The translations under genes were made by a program, and so were the position numbers. Source: an uncultured Clostridia bacterium (GTDB taxonomy: Bacteria > Bacillota > Clostridia > Christensenellales > Aristaeellaceae). From it: 64,000 nucleotides of DNA. The stretch lies in assembly GCA_946538975.1 (NCBI GenBank), contig CAMNHF010000001.1, positions 10,431-74,430 of the forward strand. Reading direction: 5' to 3'. Below, piece after piece: positions 4,476-27,100 of the stretch. The stretch's first letter is position 1. Each line of letters opens with the position of its first letter. Below the pieces are notes generated by a model that was given only the letters and a program-made list of their open reading frames with translations, searched no databases and was not told the origin of the DNA.

Positions 4476-4511
4476 CCGGCTGACCCAGTCTGAATCCGTT
4501 CCACGAAAAAG

Positions 4512-4676: not shown

Positions 4677-4715
4677 GAAGGGTTCAGCCAAGCCTCCGGC
4701 CCGGCTGAACCCTTC
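4677..4715. terminator. 13-bp perfect hairpin downstream of the radical SAM operon
   Basis: GAAGGGTTCAGCC, 13-nt loop, GGCTGAACCCTTC. The U-tracts are weak on both strands (TTTCC on plus, TATTTGGG on minus). It sits 68 nt past the rSAM stop. Confidence 0.45.
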
Positions 4716-4782
4716 TTTCCTGGATGCGGGCTTTTCACGGCCCCTATGAAAGAGACAAAACGAGGCTGCAGCACGCAGCCCC

Positions 4783-5883: not shown

Positions 5884-5897
5884 TCCGCATCGGCTCC

Positions 5898-6152: not shown

Positions 6153-6170
6153 TCTCCTTCCTGCCGGCGC

Positions 6171-6416
6171 TCAGCGGTCCGGCCCGGGACCGTACACGAT
6201 CACCATCGGCGCTTCCCGTTCCCTGCGCCTGGCCATCTCCCGCAGCGGCCCGGCGTACTTGCGGAGCAGGCTGTTCAGTGTCCCGGCCGTTTCCTCCATC
6301 AGGCTGCAGACCTGCGGCTCGTCCTGACAGAAGGAGAAACCCTGTCCCAGCCGGCGGATCAGGTCCAGCCTCTCCTGCAGCTCGCGGATGCGCTGCTGCC
6401 GTTCATCGCTCTTCAT
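6171..6416 (-). CDS. small ORF, putative RiPP precursor 2 (ends ...APMVIVYGPGPDR)
   Basis: 81 codons with RBS GGAGGAGAG about 5 nt before the ATG and high GC3. Stop lies 18 nt before the next small ORF. Paralogous to ORF 5898..6152. Confidence 0.7.
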   Translation of the reverse strand: MKSDERQQRIRELQERLDLIRRLGQGFSFCQDEPQVCSLMEETAGTLNSLLRKYAGPLREMARRREREAPMVIVYGPGPDR

Positions 6417-6448
6417 ATGCTCTCTCCTCCCCTGCGCGGGATTGATGC

Positions 6449-6624
6449 GTTACTGCTCAGCGTCTGGGGGAAAGAAACCCTTTTCGAGGCCGAAAAGGGC
6501 TTTCCTTCCCCCAGGCCCCCATCTTTCCCCAAAGGCCTTTTCCTTTTGGGGGGAAGAGGTTTTTGCGATGCATGCGCAGCCGGACAGGCTCAGGCGCAAA
6601 TTGCCCTGCGGGCTGAGCAGTAAC
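6449..6624 (+). repeat. MITE/REP-like intergenic repeat, copy A (full length)
   Basis: Perfect 13-nt inverted termini GTTACTGCTCAGC (6449-6461) and GCTGAGCAGTAAC (6612-6624). ATTGATGC is present on both flanks (6441-6448 and 6625-6632). Internal long hairpin GGGGGAAAGAAACCCTTTTC..GAAAAGGGCTTTCCTTCCCCC. Related copies at 6708, 29441 and 47479. Confidence 0.75.
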
Positions 6625-6707
6625 ATTGATGCTGCCATCATCATACACCGCTTCCGGCTTTTCCGCAAGAGTGCAGCGGCCGCGCTCGTGAATCAGCTTC
6701 ACAGATC

Positions 6708-8603: not shown

Positions 8604-9590
8604 TCACTTGAACACCACGTCGAAGGCGTTGTAGAAGTAGAAGCGGGACACCAGGGTCTGATGCAGCTCCGTGGAAGAGCAGAAGTAGAGGTTGTTCACG
8701 CTCTTGTCGGTGCCGTAGCTGAAGTCCTCGCTGTCCGCGATCATGGCCTTCATCAGCTCGGCGTTCACGTCGTACATCATGTCGCGCTTGCTGCCGCAGG
8801 CCGCATAGATGAAGAAGCTGTCCCTGTACTCGCTCTGGGCGGCCAGGGCGTCCTTCAGCATCTGAATCTGCTCCTCCACGGGCATCTCCAGGCTCATTTC
8901 CGCCGCGCCGGAGATGTTGGCGGAGAAGGGCATGAACCAGTAGGCCCGGTCCAGGCTGTGGAAGAACTGATGCCAGCAGGCATAGCAGCCGCGGGAGAAA
9001 CCGGCGAAGGCGCGGTGCTCGCGGGAGGCGATGAAGCCGGCGTCGTCGGTGGTCTCGGCGTAGGTGCGGTAGGTGCTCTCCACGGCGGGCATCAGGTCGT
9101 CGCGCATCTCCTTCGTGGAGAAGGCCTCCATGTCGATGGCGCGGTTCTCGTAATCGTAGTAATAGCAGGGGAAGACCATGATGAAGGGCTCGGTGATGCC
9201 GACCTCGATCATGTTGTCCAGCGCGTTCTTGGCCTTCTCGTCGGTGATGAAGCTGTCCTGGGTCTCGTTGGTGCCGGGCAGGAAGTAGATGATGTTGTAG
9301 CGCTCGGTGCCGTTCTCGTCGTAGCCGTAGGGCAGGTAGACATTGGCCCAGGTCGCCAGCTCGTCACCGTAGGCGGTGGTGGTGTAGTCCAGGCGCACCA
9401 CGGTGCCGGGCTGTTCGGAGGGGGCTTCGTAGAACTTGTTGTCGTACTTTTTGTAGGTGGTTTCCACGCCGATGACATCGGTGGTCGTGGTGACCTTCTT
9501 GTCCTCAGGCGCGGTGCGGCCGTCCGCCAGGGCGGCTGCCGCGCTCAGGAGAACCGTCAGGGCCAGGAGGATTGCTAGCAGCTTTTTCAT
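8604..9590 (-). CDS. secreted esterase, putative-esterase/CE1-like family (paralog 1)
   Basis: Signal peptide MKKLLAILLALTVLLSAAAALA. Shares blocks with three paralogs (NVYLPYGYDENGTERYNIIYF, TYRTYAETTDDAGFIASREHRAFAGFSRG with GxSxG). Confidence 0.75.
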   Translation of the reverse strand: MKKLLAILLALTVLLSAAAALADGRTAPEDKKVTTTTDVIGVETTYKKYDNKFYEAPSEQPGTVVRLDYTTTAYGDELATWANVYLPYGYDENGTERYNIIYFLPGTNETQDSFITDEKAKNALDNMIEVGITEPFIMVFPCYYYDYENRAIDMEAFSTKEMRDDLMPAVESTYRTYAETTDDAGFIASREHRAFAGFSRGCYACWHQFFHSLDRAYWFMPFSANISGAAEMSLEMPVEEQIQMLKDALAAQSEYRDSFFIYAACGSKRDMMYDVNAELMKAMIADSEDFSYGTDKSVNNLYFCSSTELHQTLVSRFYFYNAFDVVFK

Positions 9591-12704: not shown

Positions 12705-12743
12705 GGTGACGCTCCTTTATCTCCAGAGAGGCTGCACAGAGGG

Positions 12744-12777
12744 GGAAAGGGCCGCCGCACTCGCTGTACGGCGGCCC
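12744..12777 (-). terminator. rho-independent terminator after ORF 12800..13405
   Basis: On the minus strand GGGCCGCCG, loop, CGGCGGCCC followed by TTTCCCCC. Confidence 0.45.
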
Positions 12778-12799
12778 GTTGGTTCAGGCTGGGGGAGGA

Positions 12800-13405
12800 T
12801 TACTCGGTGATGTCGAACACGTCGATGGTGTCGGTCACGTTGGAGCAGCTCACAATCTTGTTCTCCAGGGTGACGTCGTCCAGATCCTCGCGGAGGTCTT
12901 CCACGGTGATCACGGTGCCGGCGATGTTGTGGTTGGCGATGAAGTCGGCGGCGCCATCGTCAGAGCCGTCCGGGAAGGCGATCTCGGTCATCTCGTCGGT
13001 CCAGGCGAAGGTGTCCAGCACCATCGCATAGCCCAGCACATTGCGGCCGAAGCCCTTGCCGTGCTGCTCGAAGTAGATGCCGTCCACGGTGTCCAGGGTG
13101 ATGTCGAAGTGGCAGGCTTCGTCGTCGGCGGACTCAACCTTGGTGTAGGTGCCGGAGTACACGATGACCTTGTTGGCCTTCAGGCCGGGGTCGGTGGTGC
13201 CGAAGGTGTACACGCGGTAGAACAGCTCATAGTTGGTCTCGTCGCGCAGGACCAGGGAGATGTCGGAGGTCCACCACCAGCCCACCGCGTCGATGAAGTC
13301 GGTTTCGCTCAGATTGTAGGTGCTCAGGATCGGGGCCGCGGTGGCGGCGGAGACGATGGACAGGGCCAGCACGAGGGCCAGGACCAGGGCGATCAGTTTC
13401 TTCAT
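12800..13405 (-). CDS. small secreted protein, function unknown
   Basis: 201 aa with signal peptide MKKLIALVLALVLALSIVSAATA and RBS GGAGG. Acidic mature part. No family recognised. Confidence 0.65.
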   Translation of the reverse strand: MKKLIALVLALVLALSIVSAATAAPILSTYNLSETDFIDAVGWWWTSDISLVLRDETNYELFYRVYTFGTTDPGLKANKVIVYSGTYTKVESADDEACHFDITLDTVDGIYFEQHGKGFGRNVLGYAMVLDTFAWTDEMTEIAFPDGSDDGAADFIANHNIAGTVITVEDLREDLDDVTLENKIVSCSNVTDTIDVFDITE

Positions 13406-13459
13406 GGGAGTTCCTCCTTCATTTGGCTCCGCGTTGCCGCGGGCTCATGTTGTGATCTC

Positions 13460-13527
13460 AGTTTAGCGGATGCCCGGCGGCCGTTCAAGCCGAACCGCGC
13501 AACTGTTCCTTTTCACATCGTAACTGA
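13460..13527 (-). promoter_or_regulatory. LytTR-type direct-repeat operator plus -10 box, site S1 (upstream of ORF 12800..13405)
   Basis: Minus strand reads TCAGTTACG, 12 nt, ACAGTTGCG, 32 nt, TAAACT. Spacing is the same as at S2 and S3. Confidence 0.55.
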
Positions 13528-13564
13528 CCGGGATGCAGCGGCAGGGCGCATTGAGCCCCGCGGC

Positions 13565-14290
13565 TCAGCGGACCGTGATGGTGCGGGTCAGCGTGGCGGT
13601 GCCGGCCTCGCTGCCGTCGTCCAGCACATCGACGCGCTCCACGCGGGTGACCGTCACGGCGCCGTCCTCTGCGGTCTCCACGGTCTCCGTGCCCTCGCCG
13701 GTCAGGCAGGTCTCGCGGACGAGGCTGATGATGAGCTCCGTCTCCGTTTCGCCCGCGTCGGCGGAGAACACGTCCCACAGGCCGTAGATCTCGCCGCTGC
13801 CCTTCATCAGGGTGTAGCCGAACTCGCCCTCATAGCCCTCCGGCCAGCTGCCGCCGAGGTCGATGGAGATCGTGATGTGCTCATAGTCCACGCCGTTCAG
13901 GCGCAGGCTCAGGCTGAAGCCGTCGTCCTTCTCCTCCAGGGAGGCGCTCGGCGGCATCTGCTCCCAGGTCCAGCTCTGCGGCTGGTCCGCGATCATCGCG
14001 CAGTCGTAGGCAAAGCCCTCCCGGCTCATGCGGGCGGTGAGCGCCGTATGGCCGTTCAGGCTGCCCTCGCAGAGGATCGCGCCGTCCGCGTCCTGCCACA
14101 GCTTCAGGGAGGCTGTCTCAAAGGGGATGACGCCCTCCTCCGCCTCCGCGTCGGTGACGGCGGCGGTCAGGGTCCAGCTGCGGCCGTCCAGCATGCGCAG
14201 CAGCACGTCATAAGGGTCTTCGGCCGCGGCCAGAGCGGCGGGCAGGGTCAGCAGCGCCAGGGTGAGCAGCAGGGCAAATACTTTCTTCAT
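13565..14290 (-). CDS. secreted protein, function unknown
   Basis: 241 aa with signal peptide MKKVFALLLTLALLTLPAALAAA and an RBS present. No family recognised. Confidence 0.6.
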   Translation of the reverse strand: MKKVFALLLTLALLTLPAALAAAEDPYDVLLRMLDGRSWTLTAAVTDAEAEEGVIPFETASLKLWQDADGAILCEGSLNGHTALTARMSREGFAYDCAMIADQPQSWTWEQMPPSASLEEKDDGFSLSLRLNGVDYEHITISIDLGGSWPEGYEGEFGYTLMKGSGEIYGLWDVFSADAGETETELIISLVRETCLTGEGTETVETAEDGAVTVTRVERVDVLDDGSEAGTATLTRTITVR

Positions 14291-14320
14291 GATGATCTTC
14301 CTCGTTCCGTTGTGATTCGC

Positions 14321-15256
14321 TTATTCCGCATCGGCTGCAGGCCAGAGCACGCCGTCGACGAAGGCGTTGTAGAGATAGTAGCGGCTGGTGAGATCCTGGT
14401 GGATGTTGTCGGACATCACATAGTAGAAACTGTTGACGGAAGGATCCGTGCCATAGCTGAAGCGGGGATCAGCCGCCACGCTCCGGGCCAGCTCGCCGCA
14501 GCCCACGGAAGCGCCGTCCTCGGGGCCGCCGCTGGCCATGTAGATGAAGACCGGCAGCTCCGGGTTCCCCATCACGGGGGCAAAGCTCTCCAGCTCGCCG
14601 AAGGCGCCGCTGAAGGGCAGGAAGGTGCGGCAGTAGTCCGTCATGTTCGGCAGGAGGGTCCAGGTGACGCCGCTGCCCATGGAGAAGCCGCTGATGGCCC
14701 GGAAATCCCGGGAGGCGCGGAAGCCGGCGTCGTCGGCGGTCTCCGCATAGGTGCGATAGCTTCCCTCCACCAGGGGCATGATCTCCTCCCGCATCTCGCG
14801 CAGGAACAGCTCCGGATCATAGTTGGTGCCGCGGCCGAAGTAGTAGGTGGCCGTCACCAGGATGAAGGGGCGCGTGATGCCCAGGGCGATCATGTGGTCG
14901 AAGGCGTTCTTGGTGGCGTCGTTGCGGATCAGGGTGTCCGGATCGCAGCCGCGGCCGTGGAAGAAGTAGAGCACGGGATAGCGCTCCGTGCCGTTCTCGT
15001 CATAGCCAAAGGGCAGGTAGACGTTCAGGAATTTCTTGTATTCCTTGTCGTACATGGCGGTGGTGTATTTGACCCGGATGACCTCGCCGGCCTGCTCGCA
15101 GGGGGCGTCGTAGTAGTCCCGGTCGTAGTACAGGTAATGCGTGGGCACGCCGGCCAGTTCGGAGAAGTCCATCAGCACCGCATCCGCGGGCTCCGCCGCG
15201 GCGCAGGCGAGCAGGCAGCACAGCGCAAGCAGGAGGGCAAAGCACTTTTTCCGCAT
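14321..15256 (-). CDS. secreted esterase, putative-esterase/CE1-like family (paralog 2)
   Basis: Signal peptide. NVYLPFGYDENGTERYPVLYFFHG and SYRTYAETADDAGFRASRDFRAISGFSMG (GxSxG). Confidence 0.75.
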   Translation of the reverse strand: MRKKCFALLLALCCLLACAAAEPADAVLMDFSELAGVPTHYLYYDRDYYDAPCEQAGEVIRVKYTTAMYDKEYKKFLNVYLPFGYDENGTERYPVLYFFHGRGCDPDTLIRNDATKNAFDHMIALGITRPFILVTATYYFGRGTNYDPELFLREMREEIMPLVEGSYRTYAETADDAGFRASRDFRAISGFSMGSGVTWTLLPNMTDYCRTFLPFSGAFGELESFAPVMGNPELPVFIYMASGGPEDGASVGCGELARSVAADPRFSYGTDPSVNSFYYVMSDNIHQDLTSRYYLYNAFVDGVLWPAADAE

Positions 15257-15282
15257 GGAGACCGCTCCTCTCGTCTTAATCC

Positions 15283-15317
15283 AGAAAACGCAGGAGAGGC
15301 GGAAACCTCTCCTGCCG
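15283..15317 (-). terminator. hairpin plus U-tract between esterase paralogs 3 and 2
   Basis: Minus strand: CGGCAGGAGAGG, tttccg, CCTCTCCTGCG then TTTTCTGG. It ends only about 20 nt before the RBS GAGGAG of ORF 14321..15256. Confidence 0.5.
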
Positions 15318-15326
15318 GGGATGAAA

Positions 15327-16262
15327 TCACTTGAACAGGACGTCGACCATGATGCTGTACAGGTTGTTGCGGCCCTTCAGGGTCTGATGGAGGTCCTTGG
15401 AGATGGCGACGTAGAAGTTGTTCTCCTGGGGGTCGGTGCCGTAGCTGAAGGCCTCGTCGGCCAGCATGGCGTTGGCCAGGGCGACGGTGCCCTCGTAGGC
15501 CAAGTCGCGCTTGCCGCCGGAGCAGAGGATGAAGAAGGTGTCGTCCTCATAGCCGGGCTTGGCGGCGAAGGCGTCCTTCATGGCCTGCAGGTTGTCCACG
15601 CTGCTGCCGGACATGGGCACGATCCACTTCGCCAGGTCGAAGTTCACATAGGCATTGTTCCAGCAGGCATGGCAGCCCTGGCTGTAGCCGGAGATGGCGC
15701 GGTGCTCGCGGGAGGCGATGAAGCCGGCCTCATCGGGGGTCTCGGCGTACGTGGAATACTTGGATTCGACAGCGGGCATCAGGTCGTTGCGGACCTCATA
15801 GGGGAAGACGTCGTGCTGCACGACGCGGCCTTCATAGATGTAGTAGTAGGTGGGGCAGACGATGATGAAGGGATCGCACACGCCGTAGAAGATCATGTTG
15901 TCCACGACGTTCTTCACGACGGGCTCGGCGATGAAGCTGTCCTGGGTCTCGTTGGTGCCGTGGAAGAAGTAGAGGATGTTGTACTTGTTGGCCGGATCGT
16001 AGCCGTAGGGCAGGTAGACGTTGGCCCACTGCTCGTAGGTGACGCCGTCGCCGTAGACAGCCGTGGTGTAGTCCAGGCGCTCAATCGTGCCGGGCTGCTC
16101 GCACTCGGCCTCGTAGATCTTGGCGTTGAAGGTGTGCATGCTGGCGACCACGCCGCCGTCCAGTTCGGTCTCGACCGGCTTCTTCTCCTCGGGAATCTCG
16201 GCCAGGGCCGTCGCGCTCAGGCACAGCAGCAGGGCAAGAAGCAGAGCGGCAAGCTTTTTCAT
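15327..16262 (-). CDS. secreted esterase, putative-esterase/CE1-like family (paralog 3)
   Basis: Signal peptide MKKLAALLLALLLCLSATALA. NVYLPYGYDPANKYNILYFFHG and STYAETPDEAGFIASREHRAISGYSQG. Confidence 0.75.
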   Translation of the reverse strand: MKKLAALLLALLLCLSATALAEIPEEKKPVETELDGGVVASMHTFNAKIYEAECEQPGTIERLDYTTAVYGDGVTYEQWANVYLPYGYDPANKYNILYFFHGTNETQDSFIAEPVVKNVVDNMIFYGVCDPFIIVCPTYYYIYEGRVVQHDVFPYEVRNDLMPAVESKYSTYAETPDEAGFIASREHRAISGYSQGCHACWNNAYVNFDLAKWIVPMSGSSVDNLQAMKDAFAAKPGYEDDTFFILCSGGKRDLAYEGTVALANAMLADEAFSYGTDPQENNFYVAISKDLHQTLKGRNNLYSIMVDVLFK

Positions 16263-16307
16263 GGGGATACCTCCTTCAATATTCTGGCATTTCTGCCGGC
16301 TGATTGC

Positions 16308-16375
16308 ACTATACGAAATCGCGGCCCGTCCGGAAAGACGAACCGCGCAAGTGAACCTGTTTGCATCGTAATTGG
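16308..16375 (-). promoter_or_regulatory. LytTR-type direct-repeat operator plus -10 box, site S2 (upstream of esterase paralog 3)
   Basis: Minus strand reads CCAATTACG, 12 nt, TCACTTGCG, 32 nt, TATAGT. It starts 5 nt after the stop of the upstream gene. Confidence 0.55.
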
Positions 16376-16379
16376 GAAG

Positions 16380-17333
16380 TCAGCGGAAAATGACCTCGAA
16401 GGCGTTGTACAGCATGAAGCGGCCGAAGGTGGAGCTGTGGGAGAATTCGGTAAGGCAGAAATAGAGATTGTTTGCCTTCGGATCGCGGCCGTAGGAGAAG
16501 CGCTCCGTGTCGGCAATCATGAGGGCGATCAGCTCTGTCATGGAGTAGGCGGAGTCGCTCACGCCCCCGCAGGCGGAATAGATGAAGATGTCCTTGTTCT
16601 TCAGGCTGTCCATCGATGCCGCAACGGCCTCGTACTGGGTCTGCGCATCCGGGCCGAAGCCGGTTTCGCCGGACCAGGGCATGAACCAGCGGGCCACGTC
16701 CGAGAGCTCGCTCATCATCCCCCAGGTGATCATGCTGCCGCGGCTGTAGCCGTTGAAGGCGCGGTGATCCCGGGAAGCAATGAAGCCCGCCTCGTCCGGC
16801 GTCTCCGCATAGGTGCTGTAGGTGCTCTCGATCAGGGGCATGATGTCCTGCCGCAGCTCCTGCGGCCAGAGCGCGACAACTTCGCCGGTCTTCCGCCGCT
16901 GGTCGTTGAAGTAGGACGGATAGACGAAGATCAGCGGCTCGCAGATGCCCCGGGCGATCATATTGTCCAGCGCGTTCTTGTAATAGGCGTACTGGATCAG
17001 GTCGGCAGCCCCGGCCTCCGCGCCGTGGGTGTAGTAGATGATGTTGTACTGCCGCGTTTCGTCGTAGCCGAAGGGCAGATACACATACATCACCTTGCTG
17101 ATGGGGTCATCCCCGTAGACGGTGGCCTGGTACTTGATCTTGACCACGGTGCCGGGCTGGTCGCTGGGCTCGTCGTAGTACGTCTCGTCATAGTGGCGGA
17201 ACACGGTCTCCGCGCCGACAATGTCCGTGGTGACATAGAGCGTGTCCTCGCCGGGCGCGCGCGATTCGGCGCCTGCGGGGAGCAGGGCGCAGAGCGTCAT
17301 CAGGGCCAGCAGCAGGGCAATGAGCTTTTTCAC
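16380..17333 (-). CDS. secreted esterase, putative-esterase/CE1-like family (paralog 4)
   Basis: GTG start (aa 54 of ORF 16380..17492) preceded by GGAGGA. Signal peptide (M)KKLIALLLALMTLCALLPAGA. YVYLPFGYDETRQYNIIYYTHG and STYAETPDEAGFIASRDHRAFNGYSRG. Confidence 0.75.
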   Translation of the reverse strand: MKKLIALLLALMTLCALLPAGAESRAPGEDTLYVTTDIVGAETVFRHYDETYYDEPSDQPGTVVKIKYQATVYGDDPISKVMYVYLPFGYDETRQYNIIYYTHGAEAGAADLIQYAYYKNALDNMIARGICEPLIFVYPSYFNDQRRKTGEVVALWPQELRQDIMPLIESTYSTYAETPDEAGFIASRDHRAFNGYSRGSMITWGMMSELSDVARWFMPWSGETGFGPDAQTQYEAVAASMDSLKNKDIFIYSACGGVSDSAYSMTELIALMIADTERFSYGRDPKANNLYFCLTEFSHSSTFGRFMLYNAFEVIFR

Positions 17334-17361
17334 GGTCGTTCCTCCTTCCTTGCAGGGGCAG

Positions 17362-18573
17362 TCACTGGAGATAGGCGTCCATGTAGTCGAAGTAGTTGTT
17401 CCAGTCCTCCGGGGTGATGCCGTGGTTTCCCGTGCGCATGTGATAGGCCATGCTCTCCGTGAAGATCCGCTCGCCCGGGGCAGGCTGTTCAACAGGCGCG
17501 TCCTCGATCACCTCGCGGCCCCAGATGCGGAAGGCGTCGCGGGAGAGCATCAGGGCGATCCAGGTGCCCTGGGAGTCGTTAGAGGTGTCGGTCTCGGCGC
17601 TGGAGATGTAGACCTTGCGGGGCGCGACGCAGGCGATCAGCTCGTGCTGGTCCACCGGCAGCTCCTCCACGCGGTCGTTGTAGGTCTTGCAGGTTTCGCT
17701 CATCCACCAGCGGAAGTTGGCGTTCAGGTCGGCCAGCTGCTCCTTGGCGCAGCTGCGGGTCAGGGCCGCGCCGCAGGTGCCGCTGACATTGGGGATCACC
17801 AGCGCCACGCGGTCGTCGTTCGCGCCGTACCACAGGGCAGCCTTGCCCAGACGGGAGGTGCCCACCACCGCCAGACGGCTCGCGTCCACCTGCGGATCCT
17901 GCACCAGCCAGTCCGCCATACAGGTGAGCTCCAGCGCCCAGGCGCTCATGCCGGAGACCGTGTCCTTCTCAAAGATGGAGAACAGGCGCTTCTTGTAGCT
18001 GCGGACGGTGTCCGGCACAAAGTCGTTGTAGCAGGCGACGGCGATGCCATAGCCCCGCTTCACCGCCTCCTCAACGCACCAGCTGGCGGCGCCCTGGCCG
18101 CGGGTGCCCTCCTTGATCTTGGGATACTTGTTCATGGAGTAGGAGGGGAGAATCGCCGGATCCGCCAGCACGGTGTGCACCTCGCCGCCCAGGCCGAACA
18201 CCACGGGCACAGGCGCGTCCGACTTGGGCAGGATCATCAGCATCAGCGCGTCGCAGGAGCCCATCGGCGTGGTGATGGTGATCCTCACCTGCCGGCGGAT
18301 GGCAGCGCCGTCCAGGGTTTCGCCTTCCTCCAGCAGCTCAAAGCTCTTCTCAAAGCCCTCCTGCGGGATGGGGCCGTACATGCTGTCGGCAAAGAGCGCC
18401 AGCAGCTCCGTCCGCCGCGCCGCCATCTTTTCCGGCGAATCGACGGGCGTTCCGTCCTCCATCGTCATCAGCTCGGGCAGATTGACATAGGTCCGGCCAA
18501 AGATCTCCTCGGCCCGGACCGCCATCGGCAGCAGCAGCGCAAGGGCCAGCAGCAGGGCAAACAGTCGTCTCAT
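17362..18573 (-). CDS. CE15-like glucuronoyl esterase
   Basis: Signal peptide MRRLFALLLALALLLPMAVRA. The block VVGTSRLGKAALWYG resembles the CE15 nucleophile motif G-C-S-R-x-G-K. Start at an internal Met with RBS GGGAGG. Confidence 0.65.
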   Translation of the reverse strand: MRRLFALLLALALLLPMAVRAEEIFGRTYVNLPELMTMEDGTPVDSPEKMAARRTELLALFADSMYGPIPQEGFEKSFELLEEGETLDGAAIRRQVRITITTPMGSCDALMLMILPKSDAPVPVVFGLGGEVHTVLADPAILPSYSMNKYPKIKEGTRGQGAASWCVEEAVKRGYGIAVACYNDFVPDTVRSYKKRLFSIFEKDTVSGMSAWALELTCMADWLVQDPQVDASRLAVVGTSRLGKAALWYGANDDRVALVIPNVSGTCGAALTRSCAKEQLADLNANFRWWMSETCKTYNDRVEELPVDQHELIACVAPRKVYISSAETDTSNDSQGTWIALMLSRDAFRIWGREVIEDAPVEQPAPGERIFTESMAYHMRTGNHGITPEDWNNYFDYMDAYLQ

Positions 18574-18624
18574 GGAAAAGCCTCCCTTCGGATCGGTTGA
18601 CAGGAAATGGATTCGGTTGATTCT

Positions 18625-18692
18625 ACCATACAAAAAAGTGCGGCCCGCCGCAAGGCGAACCGCGCAAGTGTGCGTTTTTGCAACGCATATGG
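18625..18692 (-). promoter_or_regulatory. LytTR-type direct-repeat operator plus -10 box, site S3 (upstream of the CE15 gene)
   Basis: Minus strand reads CCATATGCG, 12 nt, ACACTTGCG, 32 nt, TATGGT. It lies 17 nt after the kinase stop. Confidence 0.55.
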
Positions 18693-18708: not shown

Positions 18709-20025
18709 TCAGCCTTCCTCCGGCGCCAGGAGCAGGATGTCCAGGAAGAACAGCCGGCCGCGCTGCTGGGCGGTGAGCATGCCGTTGTATTTCTTCGTGA
18801 TGCGGTCCATGCTCTTCATGCCGAAGCCGTGCCAGTCCGGATCCTCCTTGGTCCGGGGCAGGCCGTCCACAAACTCGATGTCCTCCGCGCAGGGATTCTC
18901 CATGTGGATGGTCAGCATGTTGCCGTCGCGGGCCGCGGACAGGGAGATGAAGCGCTCCACGTTCTCCGGCAGGGCCGACACGGCGTTGATGGCGTTGTTG
19001 AGGGCGTTCTGGAACAGGGAATACAGATCCAGCTCCTCCACAAAGGAGAAGTCGGTCTGGCCCAGGCTGCAGGTCAGCACAATGCCGCGCTGCTGGCAGA
19101 TGCCGATCTTCTCCGCCAGCAGGACGTCCAGCACCTCGTTGCCGGAGTTGGCGGGGCGCTCATAGGCCGCGATGGACATCTTCAGCTGGTCCAGCTGCTC
19201 CTGCGGCACGACGCCCCGGAAGGACTTGAGCAGGTGCTTCAGGTCGTGGTATTTCTCCGCGATCAGCTGGGCGCTTTCCTTGCTGGCCTCGTACTGCACC
19301 CGCTGCTGATGCACAAGCTCGCGCATGGTCTCCACGTGGCTGCTCAGCCGGGCCTGCTCCATCACGCCGAACTGCAGGGCCATCGCCAGCACGTCGATCA
19401 GGATCTGCAGCACGGCTTCCGCGAACACCGCCATGCTGTTCCGGTCGGGGTTGTCCTGGGTCAGGCGCGCCATGCCGATGCACAGCAGCAGCACCGCCGC
19501 CGAGAACACCGCCTTGATCTTGTTGTCGAAGTTCCCCTCCCTGCGCTTTGCAAAGGGCCGGATCAGAAAGAAAATCAGCACGTAGACCAGCCCGTAGCAG
19601 CTCAGATCCACCAGCGCGATTCCGGCATCCGTGCCGGCCAGCTGATTCACAAAGCCCAGCTGCCGGAAGATCGTCTTGACGCTGCCGCCGGCATCCTGCG
19701 CCAGATAACCCGACGTGGCGGCAAACATGGCCGTCCAGACCGATTCATCGAAGCAGCACCAGGTGATGCCGATCAGGATCACGTAGACAATGAAGGAAAC
19801 CACCGTATGCGACAGCATCGCCTGGGCTGTGCTGCCGGGTATGTACAGATGGCGCACCACGGCAAACATGAAACCCATGCCGGCCGTCAGGGAGATGAGC
19901 AGGCGCGGCAGGAAGCCGGCCCGCTTTTTCATCGAGTAGGAGAACATGAACAGCCCGAGCACCGACTGCAGCAGCACCAGCGCGCTTCGCCAGTCGCGGT
20001 ACCACATGGGCATATAGGACGACAC
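18709..20025 (-). CDS. polytopic sensor histidine kinase (GHKL, LytTR-partner type)
   Basis: Six to seven N-terminal TM helices, H-box KYHDLKHLL, and a C-terminal ATPase region (NALNNAINA...DGLPRTKEDPDWHGFGMKSM). Start proposed at GTG 6 nt after GGAAGGAG (aa 28 of ORF 18709..20106). The start is uncertain. Confidence 0.75.
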   Translation of the reverse strand: MSSYMPMWYRDWRSALVLLQSVLGLFMFSYSMKKRAGFLPRLLISLTAGMGFMFAVVRHLYIPGSTAQAMLSHTVVSFIVYVILIGITWCCFDESVWTAMFAATSGYLAQDAGGSVKTIFRQLGFVNQLAGTDAGIALVDLSCYGLVYVLIFFLIRPFAKRREGNFDNKIKAVFSAAVLLLCIGMARLTQDNPDRNSMAVFAEAVLQILIDVLAMALQFGVMEQARLSSHVETMRELVHQQRVQYEASKESAQLIAEKYHDLKHLLKSFRGVVPQEQLDQLKMSIAAYERPANSGNEVLDVLLAEKIGICQQRGIVLTCSLGQTDFSFVEELDLYSLFQNALNNAINAVSALPENVERFISLSAARDGNMLTIHMENPCAEDIEFVDGLPRTKEDPDWHGFGMKSMDRITKKYNGMLTAQQRGRLFFLDILLLAPEEG

Positions 20026-20737
20026 TATCTGCTCCTTCCTTGTACTGCGCCAGCGCGGCCAGGAACTCCTTCCGCTTGGACTTGCTGATGGGCAGGCTGT
20101 CCTCATGCACCCGCACCGTGTCGCCCACGATGCCCCGCACGTATTTCAGGTTCACCAGATAGCAGGCGTTGCAGCGGACGAAATGCCCCTGCTGCAGCTG
20201 CTCCTCGTAGGACTTGAGCGAGCCCCACTGCCGGAAGGTCTCCGTGCCGGTGTGGATCAGGATGTCGTGATTGGACACCTCCAGATAGATCACGTCGTCC
20301 GCGCTGATCCGGCGGATGTCCTCCTTCGTGCGCAGTTCCAGGGTCAGCTCGGTGCTCTGATGCGACAGGATCCGGCAGACCCGGTCCATCTTCGCGGCGA
20401 ATTCCTCGTAGCGCACCGGCTTGAGCACGTAATCAAACGCCCGCACTGCGTAGCCCTCGATGGCGTACTGGGTCAGCATGGTGATGAAGATGATCATCAC
20501 CTGCTCATCCTTCTGCCGGATCTGCCGGGCCACGTCGATGCCGAGCATGTCCGGCATCTGGATGTCCAGGAAGATGAGATCCGCGTCGCAGCTGTACGCC
20601 TCGAGGAACAGCAGCGGGCTGGCATAATGCTGCACGGTGCAGGTGAAATCCGGGTGATTCTTCCCGTAGCGCTCCAGCATCTGCATCAGGTGCTGCGCCT
20701 GCTCCTCCTGATCCTCCAGGATCATGATCTTTCGCAT
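19745..20737 (-). CDS. LytTR-family response regulator with an anomalous ~95-aa C-terminal read-through tail
   Basis: REC domain (MRKIMILEDQ...DLIFLDIQMPDMLG...KP) plus a LytTR domain (IYLEVSNHDILIHT...FVRCNACYLVNLKYV). No in-frame stop until 19745, so the ORF overlaps the kinase 5' end. Confidence 0.75.
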   Translation of the reverse strand: MRKIMILEDQEEQAQHLMQMLERYGKNHPDFTCTVQHYASPLLFLEAYSCDADLIFLDIQMPDMLGIDVARQIRQKDEQVMIIFITMLTQYAIEGYAVRAFDYVLKPVRYEEFAAKMDRVCRILSHQSTELTLELRTKEDIRRISADDVIYLEVSNHDILIHTGTETFRQWGSLKSYEEQLQQGHFVRCNACYLVNLKYVRGIVGDTVRVHEDSLPISKSKRKEFLAALAQYKEGADSVVLYAHVVPRLAKRAGAAAVGARAVHVLLLDEKAGRLPAAPAHLPDGRHGFHVCRGAPSVHTRQHSPGDAVAYGGFLHCLRDPDRHHLVLLR

Positions 20738-20813: not shown

Positions 20814-20842
20814 ATTATACCATGCCGGGAAAAAGGACGCAA
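20814..20842 (-). promoter_or_regulatory. putative sigma-A promoter of the response-regulator/kinase operon
   Basis: Minus strand TTGCGT, 17 nt, TATAAT about 75 nt upstream of the RR start. Coordinates were anchored on the ORF-track stop at 20815 because my base count was off by 1 here. Confidence 0.45.
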
Positions 20843-21071: not shown

Positions 21072-23990
21072 TCAGAACTGGTGGTTCAGGACGATCACCC
21101 GGAACATCGCGAGGCCGCTGTTCTTGAAGGCCGCCTGGCCGATGCGCGTCAGCGGCGTTTCCGCCTCGTAGTTGACCGTGGTCAGCTGCGCGCAGTTCTC
21201 AAAGGCGGAGGTGCTGATCAGGGTCAGGAAGCGCGGCAGGGTGACGGTCACGACGCCCGTGGCCTTGAAGGCGTTTGCGCCGATGACGGTCACGGTGTTG
21301 CGGTCATTGTCGTAGGTCGGGATGACAATCTCGGCCGCGGAGCCGGTGTAGGCGGTCAGGGTGGTGGTGCCGTCGGTGCCGGCGGTGAAGGTGAAGGGCA
21401 TGTCGGCGAGCGCCTTCGCGCTGTCGGAGATCTGCTCCGTGCCGTCTTCGAAGGTCACCACGCAGCGCACGGTCAGGCCGGGCAGGTCGGCGTCCATCGT
21501 CAGCGTCAGGCTGGCTCCGGTTTCGCCCTCGAAGGCGATGAAGCCGCCGTCCGCCTCGTACTCCCACTGATAGGCGGCCTCAGTGGCGGTCTCCACCGTG
21601 AAGGTCACATCGCTGCCGAAGGCGGCCGTCTGGTCGGTGGGCTGGGTGGTGATGCCCTCGGGCTGCGGCAGGAGCAGCGCCGCGCTGTCGGACTCCGTGG
21701 AGCCGACGGAGTTGGTCGCCACCACGCGGTAGATATTCGCCGCACGGTATTCGCTGACAGGGAAGGTCAGCGTATCCGTCGTGGTGCCGACCCAGACGCT
21801 GGATTCGGTCAGATCGTGCCAGGTCTTGCCCTGATCGCGGGAGTACTGCCACTTGTAGGACACAGCGTAGTCCGCCTCGGCATGGAAGGTTACCTTGGCG
21901 CCGATTTCACCGGTCTGATCCTCGGGCTGCAGGGTGAATACAGGCTTCTCCTTCAGCAGACTGACCTGAACCTCATTGGAGGGCATGGAACCGGCCGCAT
22001 TGGTCAGCATGACGCGGTACAGGTTCTTCGCGCGGGCCGCGGTCACCGGGAAGGAGAGCGCACTGGTCTTGGTGCCGGTGAAGGTGCCCTCGGTCAAATT
22101 ATGCCAGCTTGTCTGCGAGGGCGCCTTGTACTGCCACTGATAGCTCTCGGCGTTGGCGGAAACCACGGTCAGGGTCACCGTTTCGCCTTCCGGCACCGTC
22201 GTGTTCACCGGCTGAACGTCAATCGTCGGCACCGTCAGGATCGTGAACGTCGCGGCCTCCGAGGCCAGGCTGTCCAGGCTGCTGGAAACCACGCAGCGGT
22301 AGAAATTCTTCGCGCGGATGTTGGTGATCTGGAAGGTCATTTCGGCGGTCTTGGCGCCTGCCCAGGTGAGGTTGTGCCAGGAATCCTGGGTGGGCGTCTT
22401 GTACTGCCACTGATAGCCGGTGGCGCCGTTCGCGGTGACGCTCAGCGTGACCGTCTCGTTCAGCAGGGCTTCCTTCCCCTGCGGCTGCACCGTGATCTCC
22501 AGCGGCAGCGCCGTGATCACCATCACCGCATCGGATTCCGCGGAGCCCAGCGGGTTGGACGCGATGACGCGGTACTCGTTCTTCGCGCGGCCCGAGGTCA
22601 CCGGGAAGGTCAGCGTATTGGTCGTGGTGCCGGTGCAGGTGCCCTCGGACAAATCATGCCAGCTGTCCTGGGTGGGCGCCTTGTACTGCCACTGCCAGGT
22701 CATGGCGTCGCTGGCCTCGGCCGTGAAGGTGACCGTCTCGCCGACCGGGCAGTACTGATCCGTGGGCTGCGCGGTGAAGATCGGCACGCTGGTGATGATC
22801 GCGCGGACGGCTTCCGTGGCCACGGTTTCAGAGCTGTTCTTCAGCACGACGCGGTACTCGTTCTTCGCGCGGCCCGTGGTCACCGGGAAGGTCAGCGTGT
22901 TGGTCTTGACACCCACGCAGGTGCCTTCGGTCAGGTTGTGCCAGCTCGTCTGGGTGGGCGCCTTGTACTGCCACTGATAGCTGGTGACGCCGCTCGCGCT
23001 GACGGTGAAGGTGGCGCTCTCGCCCGCCGCGCTGACATAGGCGTTCACGGGAGCCTTCTTGACGACAATGGGCGTATAGACCGTCGCGGTGACCTCATTG
23101 GAATAGGCCGTGCCGCTGGCGTTGGACGCAGCCAGACGGTAGGCGTTCTTCGCCGAGCCGTTGGTCAGGGTGAAGGACATGATGTCGGTCTTTGTGCCGA
23201 AGCTGTCGAACACATTGCCCTCGGTCATGTTGTGCCAGCTGGTCTGCGAGGGGGCCTTGTACTGCCACTGATAGGCGTCCGCGCCGGTCACGGTGGCCGA
23301 GAAGGTGACCGTCGCGCCTAGCTCCAGCGTGACGCTTTCGGGCTGGTCGTTGAACACGGGCAGGGCATCAGCCTGCTCCAGCTCGGGCACGGCGGGATCG
23401 AAGGCGTCCTCGGCGACTTCCTCCACCTCATCGGCGAAGGAGGTATCCTTCAGCGCGGGGCAGCCGGCGAAGGCCTTGCTGCCGATCTTCTTCAGGGCAT
23501 GCGCGGTGACCTTCTCCAGCTTTTCGCAGCCAAGGAAGGCTTCGGCCTGGATCTCCTCCACCGTGTCGGGCAGTTCGATCTCTTCCAGGTTCACCAGCCC
23601 GGCGAAGGCCTTTTCACCGATGACCTTCACGCCCTCGGGCACGACGATGAAATCCACATCGGAGAGGCAGGCGACGAGCACGTCATCCTCGATCGTGAAC
23701 AGCGCCGGGAGCTCTTCCTCGATCCGGATGATCTCCTCCGCCTCCTCGGGGAGCAGCTCTTCCTCCTCCCAGGCGGTCAGCTCCTCCTCGACGGACAGCT
23801 CCTCCTGCTCATACTGAACCGGTTCGGGTTCTTCTTCAATCTCGAACAAAACCGGTTCCTCTTCAAAGGTCAGCATTTCCTCCTCTTCAAAGGCAAAGGC
23901 GGTCTCCTCGACCTCCTCGGCCATTGCGGGAAGAACCAGGCCGCAGACAAGTGTCAGGGCCAGAAACAGGGCCAGCAGACGGTTCTTCAT
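21072..23990 (-). CDS. large secreted surface protein: acidic linker, BspA-type leucine-rich repeats and 7 Ig-like tandem repeats
   Basis: Signal peptide MKNRLLALFLALTLVCGLVLPAMA (start at aa 24 of the ORF, RBS GGAAGGAG). LRR blocks KVIGEKAFAGLVNLEEIELPDTVEEI at both ends. Seven ~95-aa repeats centred on YQWQYKAP(S/T)QxSWHNL. Confidence 0.8.
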   Translation of the reverse strand: MKNRLLALFLALTLVCGLVLPAMAEEVEETAFAFEEEEMLTFEEEPVLFEIEEEPEPVQYEQEELSVEEELTAWEEEELLPEEAEEIIRIEEELPALFTIEDDVLVACLSDVDFIVVPEGVKVIGEKAFAGLVNLEEIELPDTVEEIQAEAFLGCEKLEKVTAHALKKIGSKAFAGCPALKDTSFADEVEEVAEDAFDPAVPELEQADALPVFNDQPESVTLELGATVTFSATVTGADAYQWQYKAPSQTSWHNMTEGNVFDSFGTKTDIMSFTLTNGSAKNAYRLAASNASGTAYSNEVTATVYTPIVVKKAPVNAYVSAAGESATFTVSASGVTSYQWQYKAPTQTSWHNLTEGTCVGVKTNTLTFPVTTGRAKNEYRVVLKNSSETVATEAVRAIITSVPIFTAQPTDQYCPVGETVTFTAEASDAMTWQWQYKAPTQDSWHDLSEGTCTGTTTNTLTFPVTSGRAKNEYRVIASNPLGSAESDAVMVITALPLEITVQPQGKEALLNETVTLSVTANGATGYQWQYKTPTQDSWHNLTWAGAKTAEMTFQITNIRAKNFYRCVVSSSLDSLASEAATFTILTVPTIDVQPVNTTVPEGETVTLTVVSANAESYQWQYKAPSQTSWHNLTEGTFTGTKTSALSFPVTAARAKNLYRVMLTNAAGSMPSNEVQVSLLKEKPVFTLQPEDQTGEIGAKVTFHAEADYAVSYKWQYSRDQGKTWHDLTESSVWVGTTTDTLTFPVSEYRAANIYRVVATNSVGSTESDSAALLLPQPEGITTQPTDQTAAFGSDVTFTVETATEAAYQWEYEADGGFIAFEGETGASLTLTMDADLPGLTVRCVVTFEDGTEQISDSAKALADMPFTFTAGTDGTTTLTAYTGSAAEIVIPTYDNDRNTVTVIGANAFKATGVVTVTLPRFLTLISTSAFENCAQLTTVNYEAETPLTRIGQAAFKNSGLAMFRVIVLNHQF
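21414..23363 (-). repeat. coding tandem repeat array (7 x ~285 bp Ig-like modules)
   Basis: (Y/W)QW(Q/E)Y recurs at aa 263, 361, 456, 549, 640, 735 and 830 of the ORF, with conserved TLTFPVTxGRAKNxYRV blocks. Confidence 0.8.
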
Positions 23991-24060
23991 GGTGTCTCTC
24001 CTTCCGCCGCAAACGCAGAGTGCATTCATGATTGGCAACAATTCCGAACTTATCATCATG

Positions 24061-24154: not shown

Positions 24155-27100
24155 TTACGGCACAAGGACGAAGCCGAATCCATACTTTTTGGCGAAGAAC
24201 TCCGCGTAGCTGCCCTCCCGGCCGAAGATCGTCAGCCCGATGACCCCGCTGAAGGCGTCCTGCGCGATGCCGGTGCAGCTCTCGGGGATGTAGATCTGGA
24301 TGAGGTTCGGGCAGTCGGCGAAGGCGCGGCTGCGGATGGCCGTCACCGACTCCGGCAGCAGCACCCGCTTGGCCAGCGTGCCATAGAACGCCTCCACGTC
24401 GATGGTGGAGAAGGCCGGCGGCAGGGTGATGTCCGGGGTGGTGAACGGCGTGTCGAGCCATTCGAAATCGATGCTGTTTGCTTCGGCATACAGATGCGCC
24501 GCGGAGCCGTCCCAGCAGTAGATCAGCGTAACACCGGAATTCTGGAAGACATCTTCATCGATAAACGTCACGCTCTTCGGGATCGTGATCGTAGTCAGAG
24601 ATTGGGCTCCGGCGAAGGCCAGCCATTCAATCCTTTCAACACCCTCCGGAACGGTGTATTCATTGGCCGTCGAATTGATCGGATACCAGACCAGACGATG
24701 ATCAGCAAGGCCAATGAGTGCGTCATTCTGAATGCTGTAGTACGGGCTCCTGCTGGCCACTGTGATACTGCCCAGATTTGCGCAGTATGCGTATGCAGCA
24801 GCATCGATATAACTGACGCTCGCAGGGATGCTTGCTCTCGTCAGTGATTCACACCACGCAAAGGCAGCAAAGCCGATTGTCTCAACGCCGTCCGGAACAT
24901 GGAAGGCAGAAAGCGATGTGCAGTATTCAAAGCTTGCAGTTCCAATCGTTCTGAGCGTAGACGTGTCAACGATCGATCCCAGATTCGAGCAGCCATAGAA
25001 TGCATAACTGCCAATGGAGGTGACGCCGTCTTCAATCACCAGCGCCACGATATCGCTGCCCCACGGTGCAGAGGTTCTCCACGGATTCTCCAGCAGACCG
25101 TAATCCCACATATCTCCTGTGCCGGAGATGATGAGTTCAGTCCCGTTCTTCCGCCAGGTCAAATTGTCACCACAGGCGCCGCCGATGATGATATATGGGA
25201 TGCTGTTGTCGATGGCATACTGATGCGCCGCGGAGCCATCCCAGCAGTAGATGGTCAGATTCGGGCATTCTGCGAAGGCATCGGTTTCGATTGTGGCTAC
25301 AGAGTTCGGAATGGTCACAGTGGTCAGCCCGCTGCAGGCGAAGGCCCGGGTGCCGATGAATGTAACCGTTTCCGGGATGGTGACTGTCTCAAGGCTCGTA
25401 TGGTCAAAGGCATACCAGCTGATCTCACGCAGGCCCTCCGGCAGAGAAACGGAGGACAAAGCCTCGCAGTGCTCAAACGCGCCGCCGCCGATGTATGTCA
25501 CGCTGTCCGGGATCACAACGGATGTAACCTGATTGCATCCCTGGAAAGCGTACATGCCGATCGACGTGATGCCGTCGCTCAGAGAGATGGTGTTGATTCC
25601 ATCAGCAAATGTGTACCAACGGGATGCATAGGATTCGGAGCTCCACATATCCCCCGTGCCGGAGACCGTGAGCGTGCCGTCCGCATAGCGCCAGGTCAGA
25701 TTGTCGCCACAGGCGCCGCCGACCTGCACGAAGGCCCAGGACTGGTTCTGCGCGTACTCACCTGCGTTATTCTCCCACTGATGCACGTTCGATCCACCGG
25801 CTATACCACTCTGAATATCCGCTGACATACCACTCGAGCGTGCGCGGAGCCTGTAACCGTAATCTGTGGATTCAATCGACCACTGCTGACGCGTGCTGCC
25901 AGTGTAGGCACTCATTTCAATATTGTCGCGCCAGGCCACGCCGCTGCCAGCAACTGTCAGCGCCATCTGGGTATCCATCTGCTTGATCGCATAGAAGCCG
26001 TTGCTTAGATAGGTCAGCGTCCATGTGTCATAAGCTGGAGCGTTGTCGGAAGACAGCCTCACATTCGTGCCTTCTGCTGCAGGTACAGCGGAGCCAATAG
26101 GATCCATATAATACTTATTGTCTACCGCAACACGAATCTCATAATCACCATCCGGCAGCACCTGACCGGCACCGGAGGACATCTCGGAACCATTCTGACC
26201 CCATGCGGCATAGAGCGTAATATCGGCATTGCCGCTGTAGGTCGCACCCGGGTAGTAAACCGTGCCGTCCGATAGTGTCCACCAAAGGAAGGTATACCCA
26301 TCCCTCGTGGGGTTATTGCTGGCCAGGGTCAGATCAACATCGCGCGTCTTGGTCTGGTTTGCGGGCATGTTGCTGACCGGATCGGTGGTGTTGGCGTCGT
26401 AGGTGACGGTGAAGGTGTCAACCGTCCAATGTGCATACAGTGTGTGATTCCCTGCTGTGCTCACAGTCGTTGCACTTGAAATCTGAGACCCGCCGCTGGA
26501 TGCTGTGTACCATCCATCAAAGGAATATCCCGAGCGACTCGGCGTTGGCAGATCGCCATAAGCACTGCCGTAAGTTACAGACTTGCTGCCGGTGTTTACG
26601 GAACCGCCATTTGCATTGAAGGTAACCGTTTCGGGCAGTCTGGCCACACTTCTTGTCTGGCTGACATAGCCGCACTTGGAGCACTGATAGGCTTCGGTTC
26701 CTTCGGAAGTGTACGTCGGCTCGACGGTGCGCACCCAGGAGAAGGAGTGGTTGCAATTCACGGCAACAGAGCAGGTTGCTGTCTTTCCACCATCCACTGT
26801 TGTCACTGTGATCGTCGCTGTACCCCGATTCACACCGGTGACGACGCCATTGGAAACTGTCGCAACAGAGGTGTTACTACTCGTCCACGTCACATTCTTG
26901 TTGGTCGCATTAGAGGGGGAGACGGTGGCAACCAACGTCTCCTGGCTGCCTTCAACGATGGTCGTGCTAGTTTTGTTTAGGGAGACACCCGTAACGTCGA
27001 CATAGGAAACGGACGCGCTGCTGGTTGCTGTGCTTCCGCTGGTTACTGCGTTCACCTTCATATCAAGCCTGACAGATCTTCCTGCACTGTCTGTGCCGAT

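Follow-up and report, generated by a model that had tools for sequence, protein, structure and literature searches.

The stretch analysed here is a 64-kb window (64,000 nucleotides, numbered from its first letter) of contig CAMNHF010000001.1, assembly GCA_946538975.1, from an uncultured Clostridia bacterium of the family Aristaeellaceae. It carries a LytTR-type two-component system followed, on the same (minus) strand, by genes for esterases, a GH3 glycoside hydrolase and two secreted proteins of no known family, and at three places in this cluster (sites S1, S2 and S3) the same pair of direct repeats stands ahead of a promoter-like sequence. Read along the minus strand, the genes encode the response regulator, a polytopic histidine kinase, a CE15 glucuronoyl esterase, the esterase paralogues EstA, EstB and EstC, the secreted proteins Unk241 and Unk201, the GH3 enzyme and a fourth esterase (Table 1). 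Gene families were assigned with Pfam and NCBIfam, and RNAs with Rfam. These searches bear out the gene calls of the original prediction, made by a model from the letters and their open reading frames (ORFs), namely a LytTR regulator, its polytopic kinase (here with an HATPase_c_5 domain), a CE15 enzyme and esterase paralogues (here PF00756).

Both the Response_reg and the LytTR (PF04397) matches of the regulator exceed their curated cut-offs, and its scores against the NCBIfam models for LytR, BtsR and AgrA are all far under theirs (49.5 against a cut-off of 400 for AgrA). Judged by these matches, it is thus a LytTR-family response regulator and not an orthologue of AgrA, LytR or BtsR; among its matches listed from PDB sequences there are only receiver domains. 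The kinase has about six hydrophobic segments within residues 1–223 and no large extracellular domain, had no match among PDB sequences, and keeps H260 (in EKYHDLKH), N340/N344 and H399–G402 in all 23 aligned homologues. The promoter that had been proposed for the two-component genes (TTGCGT, 17 nt, TATAAT) is found in the sequence as stated, with a TGg ahead of the -10; a consensus sigma-70 scan misses it and so gives it no independent support.

The three sites share one layout, consisting of a 9-bp repeat, 12 nt, a second 9-bp repeat, 32 nt and a -10 hexamer, and on re-reading the minus strand both the strings and the two spacings reported earlier are exact. A -35-like hexamer follows the right repeat by 9 nt in each site and lies 17 nt ahead of the -10, and the left repeats stand 113–122 nt from the start codons of Unk201, EstB and CE15. 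S1–S3 therefore have the geometry of a LytTR operator (9-12-9 bp, with 9 nt to the -35). Published operators of this family follow the consensus [TA][AC][CA]GTTN[AG][TG], with a 12–13 bp spacer and a position upstream of the -35 (PMC5600425), and ACAGTTGCG and TCAGTTACG fit this consensus at 8 of 9 positions; streptococcal LytTR sites have repeats 12 bp apart, placed 4–11 bp, mostly 10, from the -35 (PMC6193735). With a transcription start about 7 nt after the -10, the repeats would be centred near -49 and -70. Overall, we regard S1–S3 as activator-dependent, sigma-A-type promoters that carry the operator of the adjacent LytTR regulator, and give this reading a probability of roughly 80%.

Table 1. 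Genes, operator-promoters and hairpins of the LytTR locus, in window coordinates.
Feature	Position	Strand	Details
Two-component operon promoter	20814..20842	-	TTGCGT, 17 nt, TATAAT; TGg ahead of -10; read from sequence
Response regulator, receiver and LytTR domains	20005..20737	-	Pfam Response_reg 1.1e-17, LytTR 4.9e-15
Polytopic histidine kinase, AgrC-like type	18709..20025	-	Pfam HATPase_c_5 3.4e-22
S3 operator-promoter, CE15 and EstA	18692..18625	-	same 9-12-9-32 layout as S1
S3 left repeat	18692..18684	-	CCATATGCG
S3 right repeat	18671..18663	-	ACACTTGCG
S3 -35	18653..18648	-	TTGCGG
S3 -10	18630..18625	-	TATGGT
Predicted intrinsic terminator of the two-component operon, within S3	18632..18663	-	hairpin 18663..18640, T run 18637..18632
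CE15 glucuronoyl esterase, secreted	17362..18573	-	Pfam GCE_fung 3.5e-29; signal peptide seen
EstA, esterase paralogue	16380..17333	-	PF00756 0.0005, under curated cut-off; 39-41% identity to EstB/EstC
S2 operator-promoter, EstB and genes downstream	16375..16308	-	same 9-12-9-32 layout as S1
S2 left repeat	16375..16367	-	CCAATTACG
S2 right repeat	16354..16346	-	TCACTTGCG
S2 -35	16336..16331	-	TTTCCG
S2 -10	16313..16308	-	TATAGT
Hairpin within S2	16320..16347	-	12 pairs, weak T tract (ATTTCG); terminator scan; -20.9 kcal/mol
EstB, esterase paralogue	15327..16262	-	PF00756 3e-06; NF041944 esterase part matched partially
EstC, esterase paralogue	14321..15256	-	PF00756 8.4e-08; no operator ahead
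Unk241, secreted 241-aa protein	13565..14290	-	no Pfam or NCBIfam match
S1 operator-promoter, Unk201 and probably GH3	13527..13460	-	9-bp repeat, 12 nt, repeat, 32 nt, -10
S1 left repeat	13527..13519	-	TCAGTTACG
S1 right repeat	13506..13498	-	ACAGTTGCG
S1 -35	13488..13483	-	TTGAAC
S1 -10	13465..13460	-	TAAACT
Unk201, secreted 201-aa beta-rich protein	12800..13405	-	no Pfam, NCBIfam or PDB sequence match
GH3 glycoside hydrolase, 1012 aa	9666..12704	-	GH3_C, Fn3-like and GH3 N domains in Pfam
Fourth PF00756 esterase paralogue, after GH3	8604..9590	-	Pfam PF00756 2.5e-05

Aligning the sites of relatives refines this anatomy in two respects. The direct repeats and their 12-nt gap hold, but the repeat unit is longer than the 9 bp first assigned to it: across the family it is about 11–12 bp, CAnTTACGATG, with a period of 21 bp (two helical turns), and the operator takes the form CAnTTACGATG-N10-CAnTTACG(ATG/CGG) within a wider consensus, nCAnTTACGATGtRAAAnnnnnnCAGTTACG(ATG/CGG)TwCGnCTTG. 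The 12-bp spacer is constant throughout the 26-site matrix alignment, and the ATG after each repeat, the A-rich start of the spacer and the GT and CTTG before the -35 are strongly conserved though they lie outside the columns used for selection. The string TTGCGCGGTTCG, which occurs three times in the window and only at S1, S2 and S3, is common to all three sites, as had been noted, but is only partly operator: its first part is the right repeat's 3' half, and it continues as the 5' arm of a hairpin stem.

The element is highly specific within the window. The check suggested for the half-sites, a matrix scan with the fixed spacer, scored S1–S3 at 24–27 bits, with the next match at 14 and shuffle maxima averaging 12.8 (standard deviation 2.7). 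An independent matrix of 43 columns, trained on 23 sites of other genomes with the window's own sites left out, gave 49.5, 46.9 and 36.7 bits for S1, S2 and S3, against -11.6 for the next best match and a shuffle maximum of 3.3, and neither matrix returned a further copy in the window. Homologues of the kinase span 98% to <35% identity; an alignment of 23 of them served as the query for relatives, and 80 loci were taken from 361 confirmed kinase matches in species-representative genomes. These loci come mostly from rumen and gut Clostridia metagenome-assembled genomes (MAGs), plus Limiplasma, Gemmiger and Butyrivibrio, and hold about 100 matches to the 43-column matrix, all but one on the strand of the two-component genes. 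Repeats with a 21-bp period were also sought de novo behind every kinase gene; the output was noisy and served only to illustrate variants.

Metagenomes scanned with a DNA-only pattern yielded 90 stretches, reduced to 54 non-redundant sites, and 41 of the 45 callable ORFs behind these belong to known families (19 Unk201, 12 EstB, seven Unk241, two response regulator and one CE15), the other four being short or truncated ORFs behind sites whose sequences are closely similar to those of the assigned classes. In 42 Unk201 upstream regions, picked via the protein (36–100% identity) and not via the motif, the conserved blocks are the two repeats, the -35, the -10 and the ribosome-binding site. A generic intergenic repeat recurring at unrelated loci had been named beforehand as the outcome that would speak against an operator. 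The element is neither such a repeat nor a product of chance, since three checks free of circularity (the independent matrix, the metagenome scan and the Unk201 upstream alignment) agree.

The same comparison bears on whether the shared block could have arisen by copying alone, as a terminator-promoter cassette or an intergenic repeat that duplication or gene conversion spread within the locus and that no dedicated regulator serves, which we consider extremely improbable. Its hairpin part is indeed a terminator by scan and covariation (see below), and an extra string common to S1–S3, CGCGGTTCG, is present in relatives at hairpin-bearing sites only, which suggests some copying; because orthologous Unk201 promoters elsewhere read ACGATGTACGCCTTG, some copying among the window's three sites is indeed likely. 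However, the repeats, the 12-nt gap and the distance to the -35 are kept at hairpin-less sites and where the flanks have fully diverged, two gut loci (L082 and L083) have their terminator separate from and upstream of the repeats, and the remaining 60 kb of the window has no copy of the element, which in metagenomes stands only before the same gene families. Nor is the likeness of the promoters a by-product of duplication, because the genes behind S1, S2 and S3 are mutually unrelated; a recent gene duplication was considered as its source and rejected on these grounds, the esterase paralogues EstA, EstB and EstC being just 39–42% identical in pairwise comparison.

That the adjacent regulator is the protein bound here is inferred from the company that the element keeps. 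It accompanies orthologous two-component systems in dozens of species, on the coding strand, and in the clade at ~70% kinase identity a site lies ahead of the regulator gene itself, which indicates autoregulation in those relatives; loci with such a site include L008, L009, L011, L013, L015, L017 and L020. The operator might be real and yet be bound by a factor encoded elsewhere, such as another LytTR paralogue, with the adjacency incidental, and genomes of this group do hold several paralogous LytTR systems (L001 and L059 in one MAG, two modules in L081). We nevertheless rate this highly unlikely, for the element tracks the orthologous two-component genes in ~60 loci, precedes the regulator gene in relatives as just described, and differs between paralogous systems of the same MAG, each of which has its own variant beside its own Unk201 copy (TTACG in L001 vs. 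ATATG in L059). Taken together, orthologous loci, regulator-gene sites, paralogue variants, metagenomes and the published geometry strongly support the LytTR operator first proposed for these repeats.

The direction of regulation is a separate matter, which sequence alone does not tell, and the regulator could bind the repeats as a repressor or roadblock. The position of the repeats argues for activation: they cover about -45 to -74, entirely ahead of the -35, and this is the activator position in AgrA, ComE and HdrR (PMC5600425, PMC6193735). The -35 hexamers are also poor (TTTCCG, TTGCGG), as expected where an activator is needed, and relatives have sites ahead of the regulator gene, in keeping with positive autoregulation. 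We therefore see little room for repression, on a par with binding by a factor from elsewhere, and take activation by the adjacent regulator as the probable mode.

Several observations weigh against an activator-dependent promoter set under this regulator. The left repeat of S3 is degenerate (CCATATGCGTTG), and a consensus sigma-70 scan calls none of S1–S3, giving them no independent support; the scan misses them because their -35 boxes are weak, which is expected of activator-dependent promoters and is not positive evidence for them. No operator was found upstream of the regulator gene in the window (best independent-matrix score -24.5), unlike classical autoregulated LytTR systems, and the DNA scanned from the source genome was this 64-kb window. 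A residue of the regulator tracks the operator variant, with SNHD accompanying TTACG, SGHD accompanying TTATG or TTTTG, and ARHD accompanying TTTTGACA, where the residue in question lies just before a histidine that we align with AgrA His169. This covariation is suggestive and consistent with a link to the regulator, but is confounded by ancestry, perhaps by a single phylogenetic split, and is not counted as independent evidence. Finally, the place of EstC and Unk241 in the regulon is uncertain: they have no operator of their own and lie behind a terminator-like hairpin and T tract between EstB and EstC (15315..15290, minus strand, from the terminator scan), and the 70-nt gap ahead of EstC contains no operator and no obvious promoter.

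Two of the three promoters also appear to contain a terminator. By the terminator scan, the S3 hairpin has 10 pairs followed by T6, with a folding energy of -20.1 kcal/mol and the -35 in its loop. S3 thus has the features of an intrinsic terminator (a G+C-rich hairpin, a T run and a position after a gene), S2 has a weak T tract, and in S1, which retains TTGCGCGGTTCG, the hairpin is degenerate on folding. The stem of S2 reads CGTC/GACG where that of S3 reads CGCC/GGCG, a compensatory change. The pattern extends to relatives, where sites directly after a gene have CGG in place of ATG after the right repeat and the ~30 nt that come next form a strong hairpin, at -17 to -26 kcal/mol, with a T run behind it. 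An alignment of 18 orthologous sites has compensatory double changes at 7 of the 11 stem pairs. The final bases of the right repeat already belong to the stem, the -35 contributes its TTG to the loop, and the T run extends up to the -10. We predict on this basis that the S3 and S2 hairpins act as terminators, the latter probably as a leaky one after EstA. Because L082 and L083 keep the two elements apart, the overlap of terminator and promoter would be a lineage-specific compaction.

Two further RNA structures were noted around Unk201. A G+C-rich hairpin lies between Unk201 and GH3 (12705..12799, minus strand: GGGCCGCCG..CGGCGGCCC, then TTTCCCCC) and may attenuate read-through to GH3. A small stem-loop, CCGCG-GCAA-CGCGG, occupies 13429..13442 (minus strand) in the 5' untranslated region (UTR) of Unk201, between the -10 and the ribosome-binding site. 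Its counterpart in relatives (the L003–L028 regions) reads ACCTGCC..GCAGGT, with arms that vary by lineage, pairing that is kept and no Rfam match, and it could be an mRNA-stabilising or regulatory element.

The conserved targets of the system differ in part from those first proposed. The sites do precede CE15 and EstB, as expected of the esterase regulon in the original prediction, but the conserved core consists of Unk201 and the GH3 gene behind it, and not of the esterases. In practically all lineages, Butyrivibrio, Gemmiger and Limiplasma among them, an Unk201 orthologue lies downstream of a site, making S1 the universally conserved site of the family, and Unk201 orthologues follow the two-component genes in ~60 loci. 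The order regulator-kinase-(inserts)-Unk201-GH3 is kept across loci from Butyrivibrio to Limiplasma, the most distant systems having regulator-kinase-GH3, and in L022 Unk201-GH3 stands upstream of the two-component genes with the element still present. Many loci have a site orthologous to S3 right behind the kinase gene. CE15 lies behind a site in the window and in its closest relative, L001. In relatives at ~70% kinase identity, sites are also found ahead of EstB and of Unk241, whose orthologues have their own operator directly after the kinase gene, and many relatives have an EstB-like gene after GH3. On this comparison, the core targets are Unk201 and GH3, and the esterases are lineage-specific recruits to an older regulon. 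EstB itself is probably of the feruloyl-esterase type, judging by its family matches.

Three relatives show further settings of the module. Directly upstream of the orthologous module in the Limiplasma locus L081 is a second, distant paralogous one (1214..6656), which contains an MFS_2 symporter, a LytTR response regulator, a kinase, a GH3 gene and an unrelated 210-aa secreted protein; the latter was considered as a relative of Unk201 and rejected, as the two have nothing detectable in common beyond a signal peptide. In the gut contigs L082 and L083, the genes run regulator-kinase-Unk201-GH3-GH2 beside relaxase and resolvase genes, or beside phage baseplate and reverse-transcriptase (bAvd) genes, which suggests that mobile elements can carry the module or adjoin it.

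A mechanism consistent with these observations would run as follows. A stimulus would act on the polytopic kinase, and the phosphorylated regulator, as a dimer, would bind both repeats and recruit RNA polymerase. Three units would thereby be turned on: CE15-EstA; EstB, from which read-through would extend to EstC and Unk241; and Unk201-GH3, together with the fourth esterase gene. Transcription of the two-component operon would be constitutive, and the terminators embedded in S3 and S2 would keep it from running on into the genes behind them, which would therefore depend on the activator. Evolutionarily, the ancestral module was probably regulator-kinase / Unk201-GH3. In the lineage of the window, esterase genes would then have entered the space after the kinase gene and ahead of Unk201, each of the units having an operator-promoter copy to itself.

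What the kinase responds to can be approached only indirectly. The system had been labelled quorum-sensing-type, which holds as a family label only; nothing seen here speaks for quorum sensing as such. A true peptide circuit of the Agr, Com or VirSR type, with the esterases as density-controlled public goods, would suit a polytopic HATPase_c_5 kinase devoid of a large extracellular domain, as in AgrC-type peptide receptors, and small peptide genes are easily overlooked. Yet none of the genes annotated in the window or in L081–L083 belongs to an AgrB family (small peptide genes and distant loci may escape such a comparison), and no gene upstream of the regulator is conserved in these four contexts, where BspA-like proteins, a relaxase, phage genes or a paralogous module are found instead. 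Since what is conserved with the system is a surface GH3 enzyme and the surface protein Unk201, we think such a circuit unlikely and a substrate-linked signal more probable; rather than a cell-density peptide, the kinase most likely senses something that derives from the substrate, such as a plant glycoside, an oligosaccharide or a product of hydrolysis.

Unk201 and GH3 are themselves unusual. Across the window and L024–L067, the Unk201 family is highly conserved, with the motifs FGTTDPG, EQHGKG.GR, LDTANWT and TVEDP, and corresponds to no Pfam family; searches of Unk201 against Pfam, NCBIfam and PDB sequences gave no match, nor any sequence relative whose function is known. A lipoprotein signal (L-T/S-A-C-G) is present in most orthologues, and the clade of the window has an ordinary signal peptide. 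An AlphaFold model built from a deeper alignment reached a predicted local distance difference test (pLDDT) score of 87.5 and a predicted template-modelling score (pTM) of 0.80, replacing an unstable earlier run with a shallow alignment (best model 77.7, others 40–52). A fold search with Unk201 returned a single notable neighbour, VtrC, at weak similarity (E ~0.009, template-modelling score 0.31–0.51, 7–9% identity). The Pfam domains of GH3 come in permuted order (C-terminal domain 94–370, Fn3-like 441–514, N-terminal domain 729–903), between membrane helices at both ends (residues 10–43 and 982–1005).

VtrC is the extracytoplasmic beta-barrel partner of a membrane signalling protein (VtrA/VtrC of Vibrio parahaemolyticus) and a bile-salt co-sensor; given the weak match and low identity, a co-sensor role of Unk201 would be no more than an attractive possibility. 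It is tempting to speculate that the two-component system forms a three-part glycan sensor on a peptide-receptor chassis, in which the kinase would read its signal via the co-conserved and co-regulated Unk201, whose beta-rich fold would be a new one, and/or via the doubly anchored GH3, although we hold this only tentatively and would sooner expect it to be wrong than right. If true, surface enzyme activity or ligand capture would be turned into LytTR-dependent transcription, and the >360 loci in species-representative genomes would represent a widespread, undescribed class of substrate sensing in gut and rumen Clostridia. A sensor role for Unk201 and GH3 would raise the interest of the system.

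Among characterized systems, the closest in build is AgrC/AgrA of Staphylococcus aureus (P2/P3), which likewise combines a polytopic HATPase_c_5 kinase with a receiver-LytTR regulator and 9-bp direct repeats upstream of the -35 (PMC5600425). The system of the window differs in its longer repeat (CAnTTACGATG), in its secreted carbohydrate-active targets, in having no RNAIII-type effector, and in lacking two Agr-type features, linked autoinducer genes (no agrB or agrD was found in the window, nor such genes in L081–L083) and autoregulation in this genome. VirS/VirR of Clostridium perfringens is similar in its polytopic kinase, in two imperfect direct repeats just upstream of its promoters and in its small regulon of secreted proteins (PMC4877802), but VirS is reported to answer an Agr-like peptide (PMC7492741) and the targets are toxins and small RNAs. 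The streptococcal systems ComD/ComE, BlpH/BlpR and HdrRM/BrsRM share the 9-12-9 repeats, the 4–11 bp to the -35 and several promoters per regulon (PMC6193735), but control competence and bacteriocins and are autoregulated, and HdrRM/BrsRM have no kinase.

The output of the system is less unprecedented than the word "unusual", first applied to it, would imply. Three LytTR regulators of Butyrivibrio proteoclasticus B316 (PUL7, 21 and 33) each stand beside a secreted GH3 with a C-terminal membrane helix (Kelly et al., 2010; PMC2914790), and a LytTR response regulator with a histidine kinase lies in the Roseburia arabinoxylan locus Ros-7 (Sheridan et al., 2016; PMC5320581). The GH3 of the window has a C-terminal helix too, and four Butyrivibrio loci (L044, L046, L053 and L054) belong to the family and carry the operator. 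Both papers note the annotation only; an operator or regulon, an overlap with a terminator and a conserved partner protein of 200 aa are features that neither describes. They were the only finds, and in passing mentions, of a literature search for LytTR with polysaccharide utilisation, GH3 and rumen/esterase, and no paper tying LytTR to a glucuronoyl esterase was found. Relative to these two papers, the present analysis adds the operator, the regulon, the terminator overlap and the conserved Unk201 partner, the association of LytTR and GH3 genes being already known. With respect to the features of a polysaccharide-utilisation locus (as in PMC5320581), the window has the enzymes and a regulator and no sugar transporter inside the cluster; an MFS_2 symporter adjoins in L081 and L082.

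Little is understood of how Gram-positive bacteria of the gut and rumen regulate their fibre-degrading enzymes, most of these organisms being uncultured. S1–S3 offer a concrete, testable operator and a small, defined regulon for a two-component family linked to GH3, with at least 361 loci in species-representative genomes, and they single out Unk201, a surface protein that is highly conserved and uncharacterised, as the system's core partner. They also illustrate the recruitment of enzymes to an existing regulon, in that CE15 and the feruloyl-type esterases, which attack lignin-xylan ester bonds, would each have gained a copy of the operator-promoter. A terminator folded into an activator-dependent promoter would make a compact insulation device, and could serve as a design principle.

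Outside the regulon, Rfam recognised two tRNA genes in the window (38328..38415 and 38439..38524) and nothing at S1–S3 or in the Unk201 5' UTR. A CE2 carbohydrate esterase (36303..37439, minus strand) has no operator and lies at a distance from the regulon. The two-component genes are preceded directly upstream by a 995-aa surface protein with BspA-type leucine-rich repeats and the immunoglobulin-type domains Ig_3 and I-set (21072..24059, minus strand), followed further upstream by a 1326-aa surface protein (24155..28135, minus strand) with BspA-type leucine-rich repeats, Listeria-Bacteroides repeats, and Big_2 Ig-like and ricin-type lectin domains.

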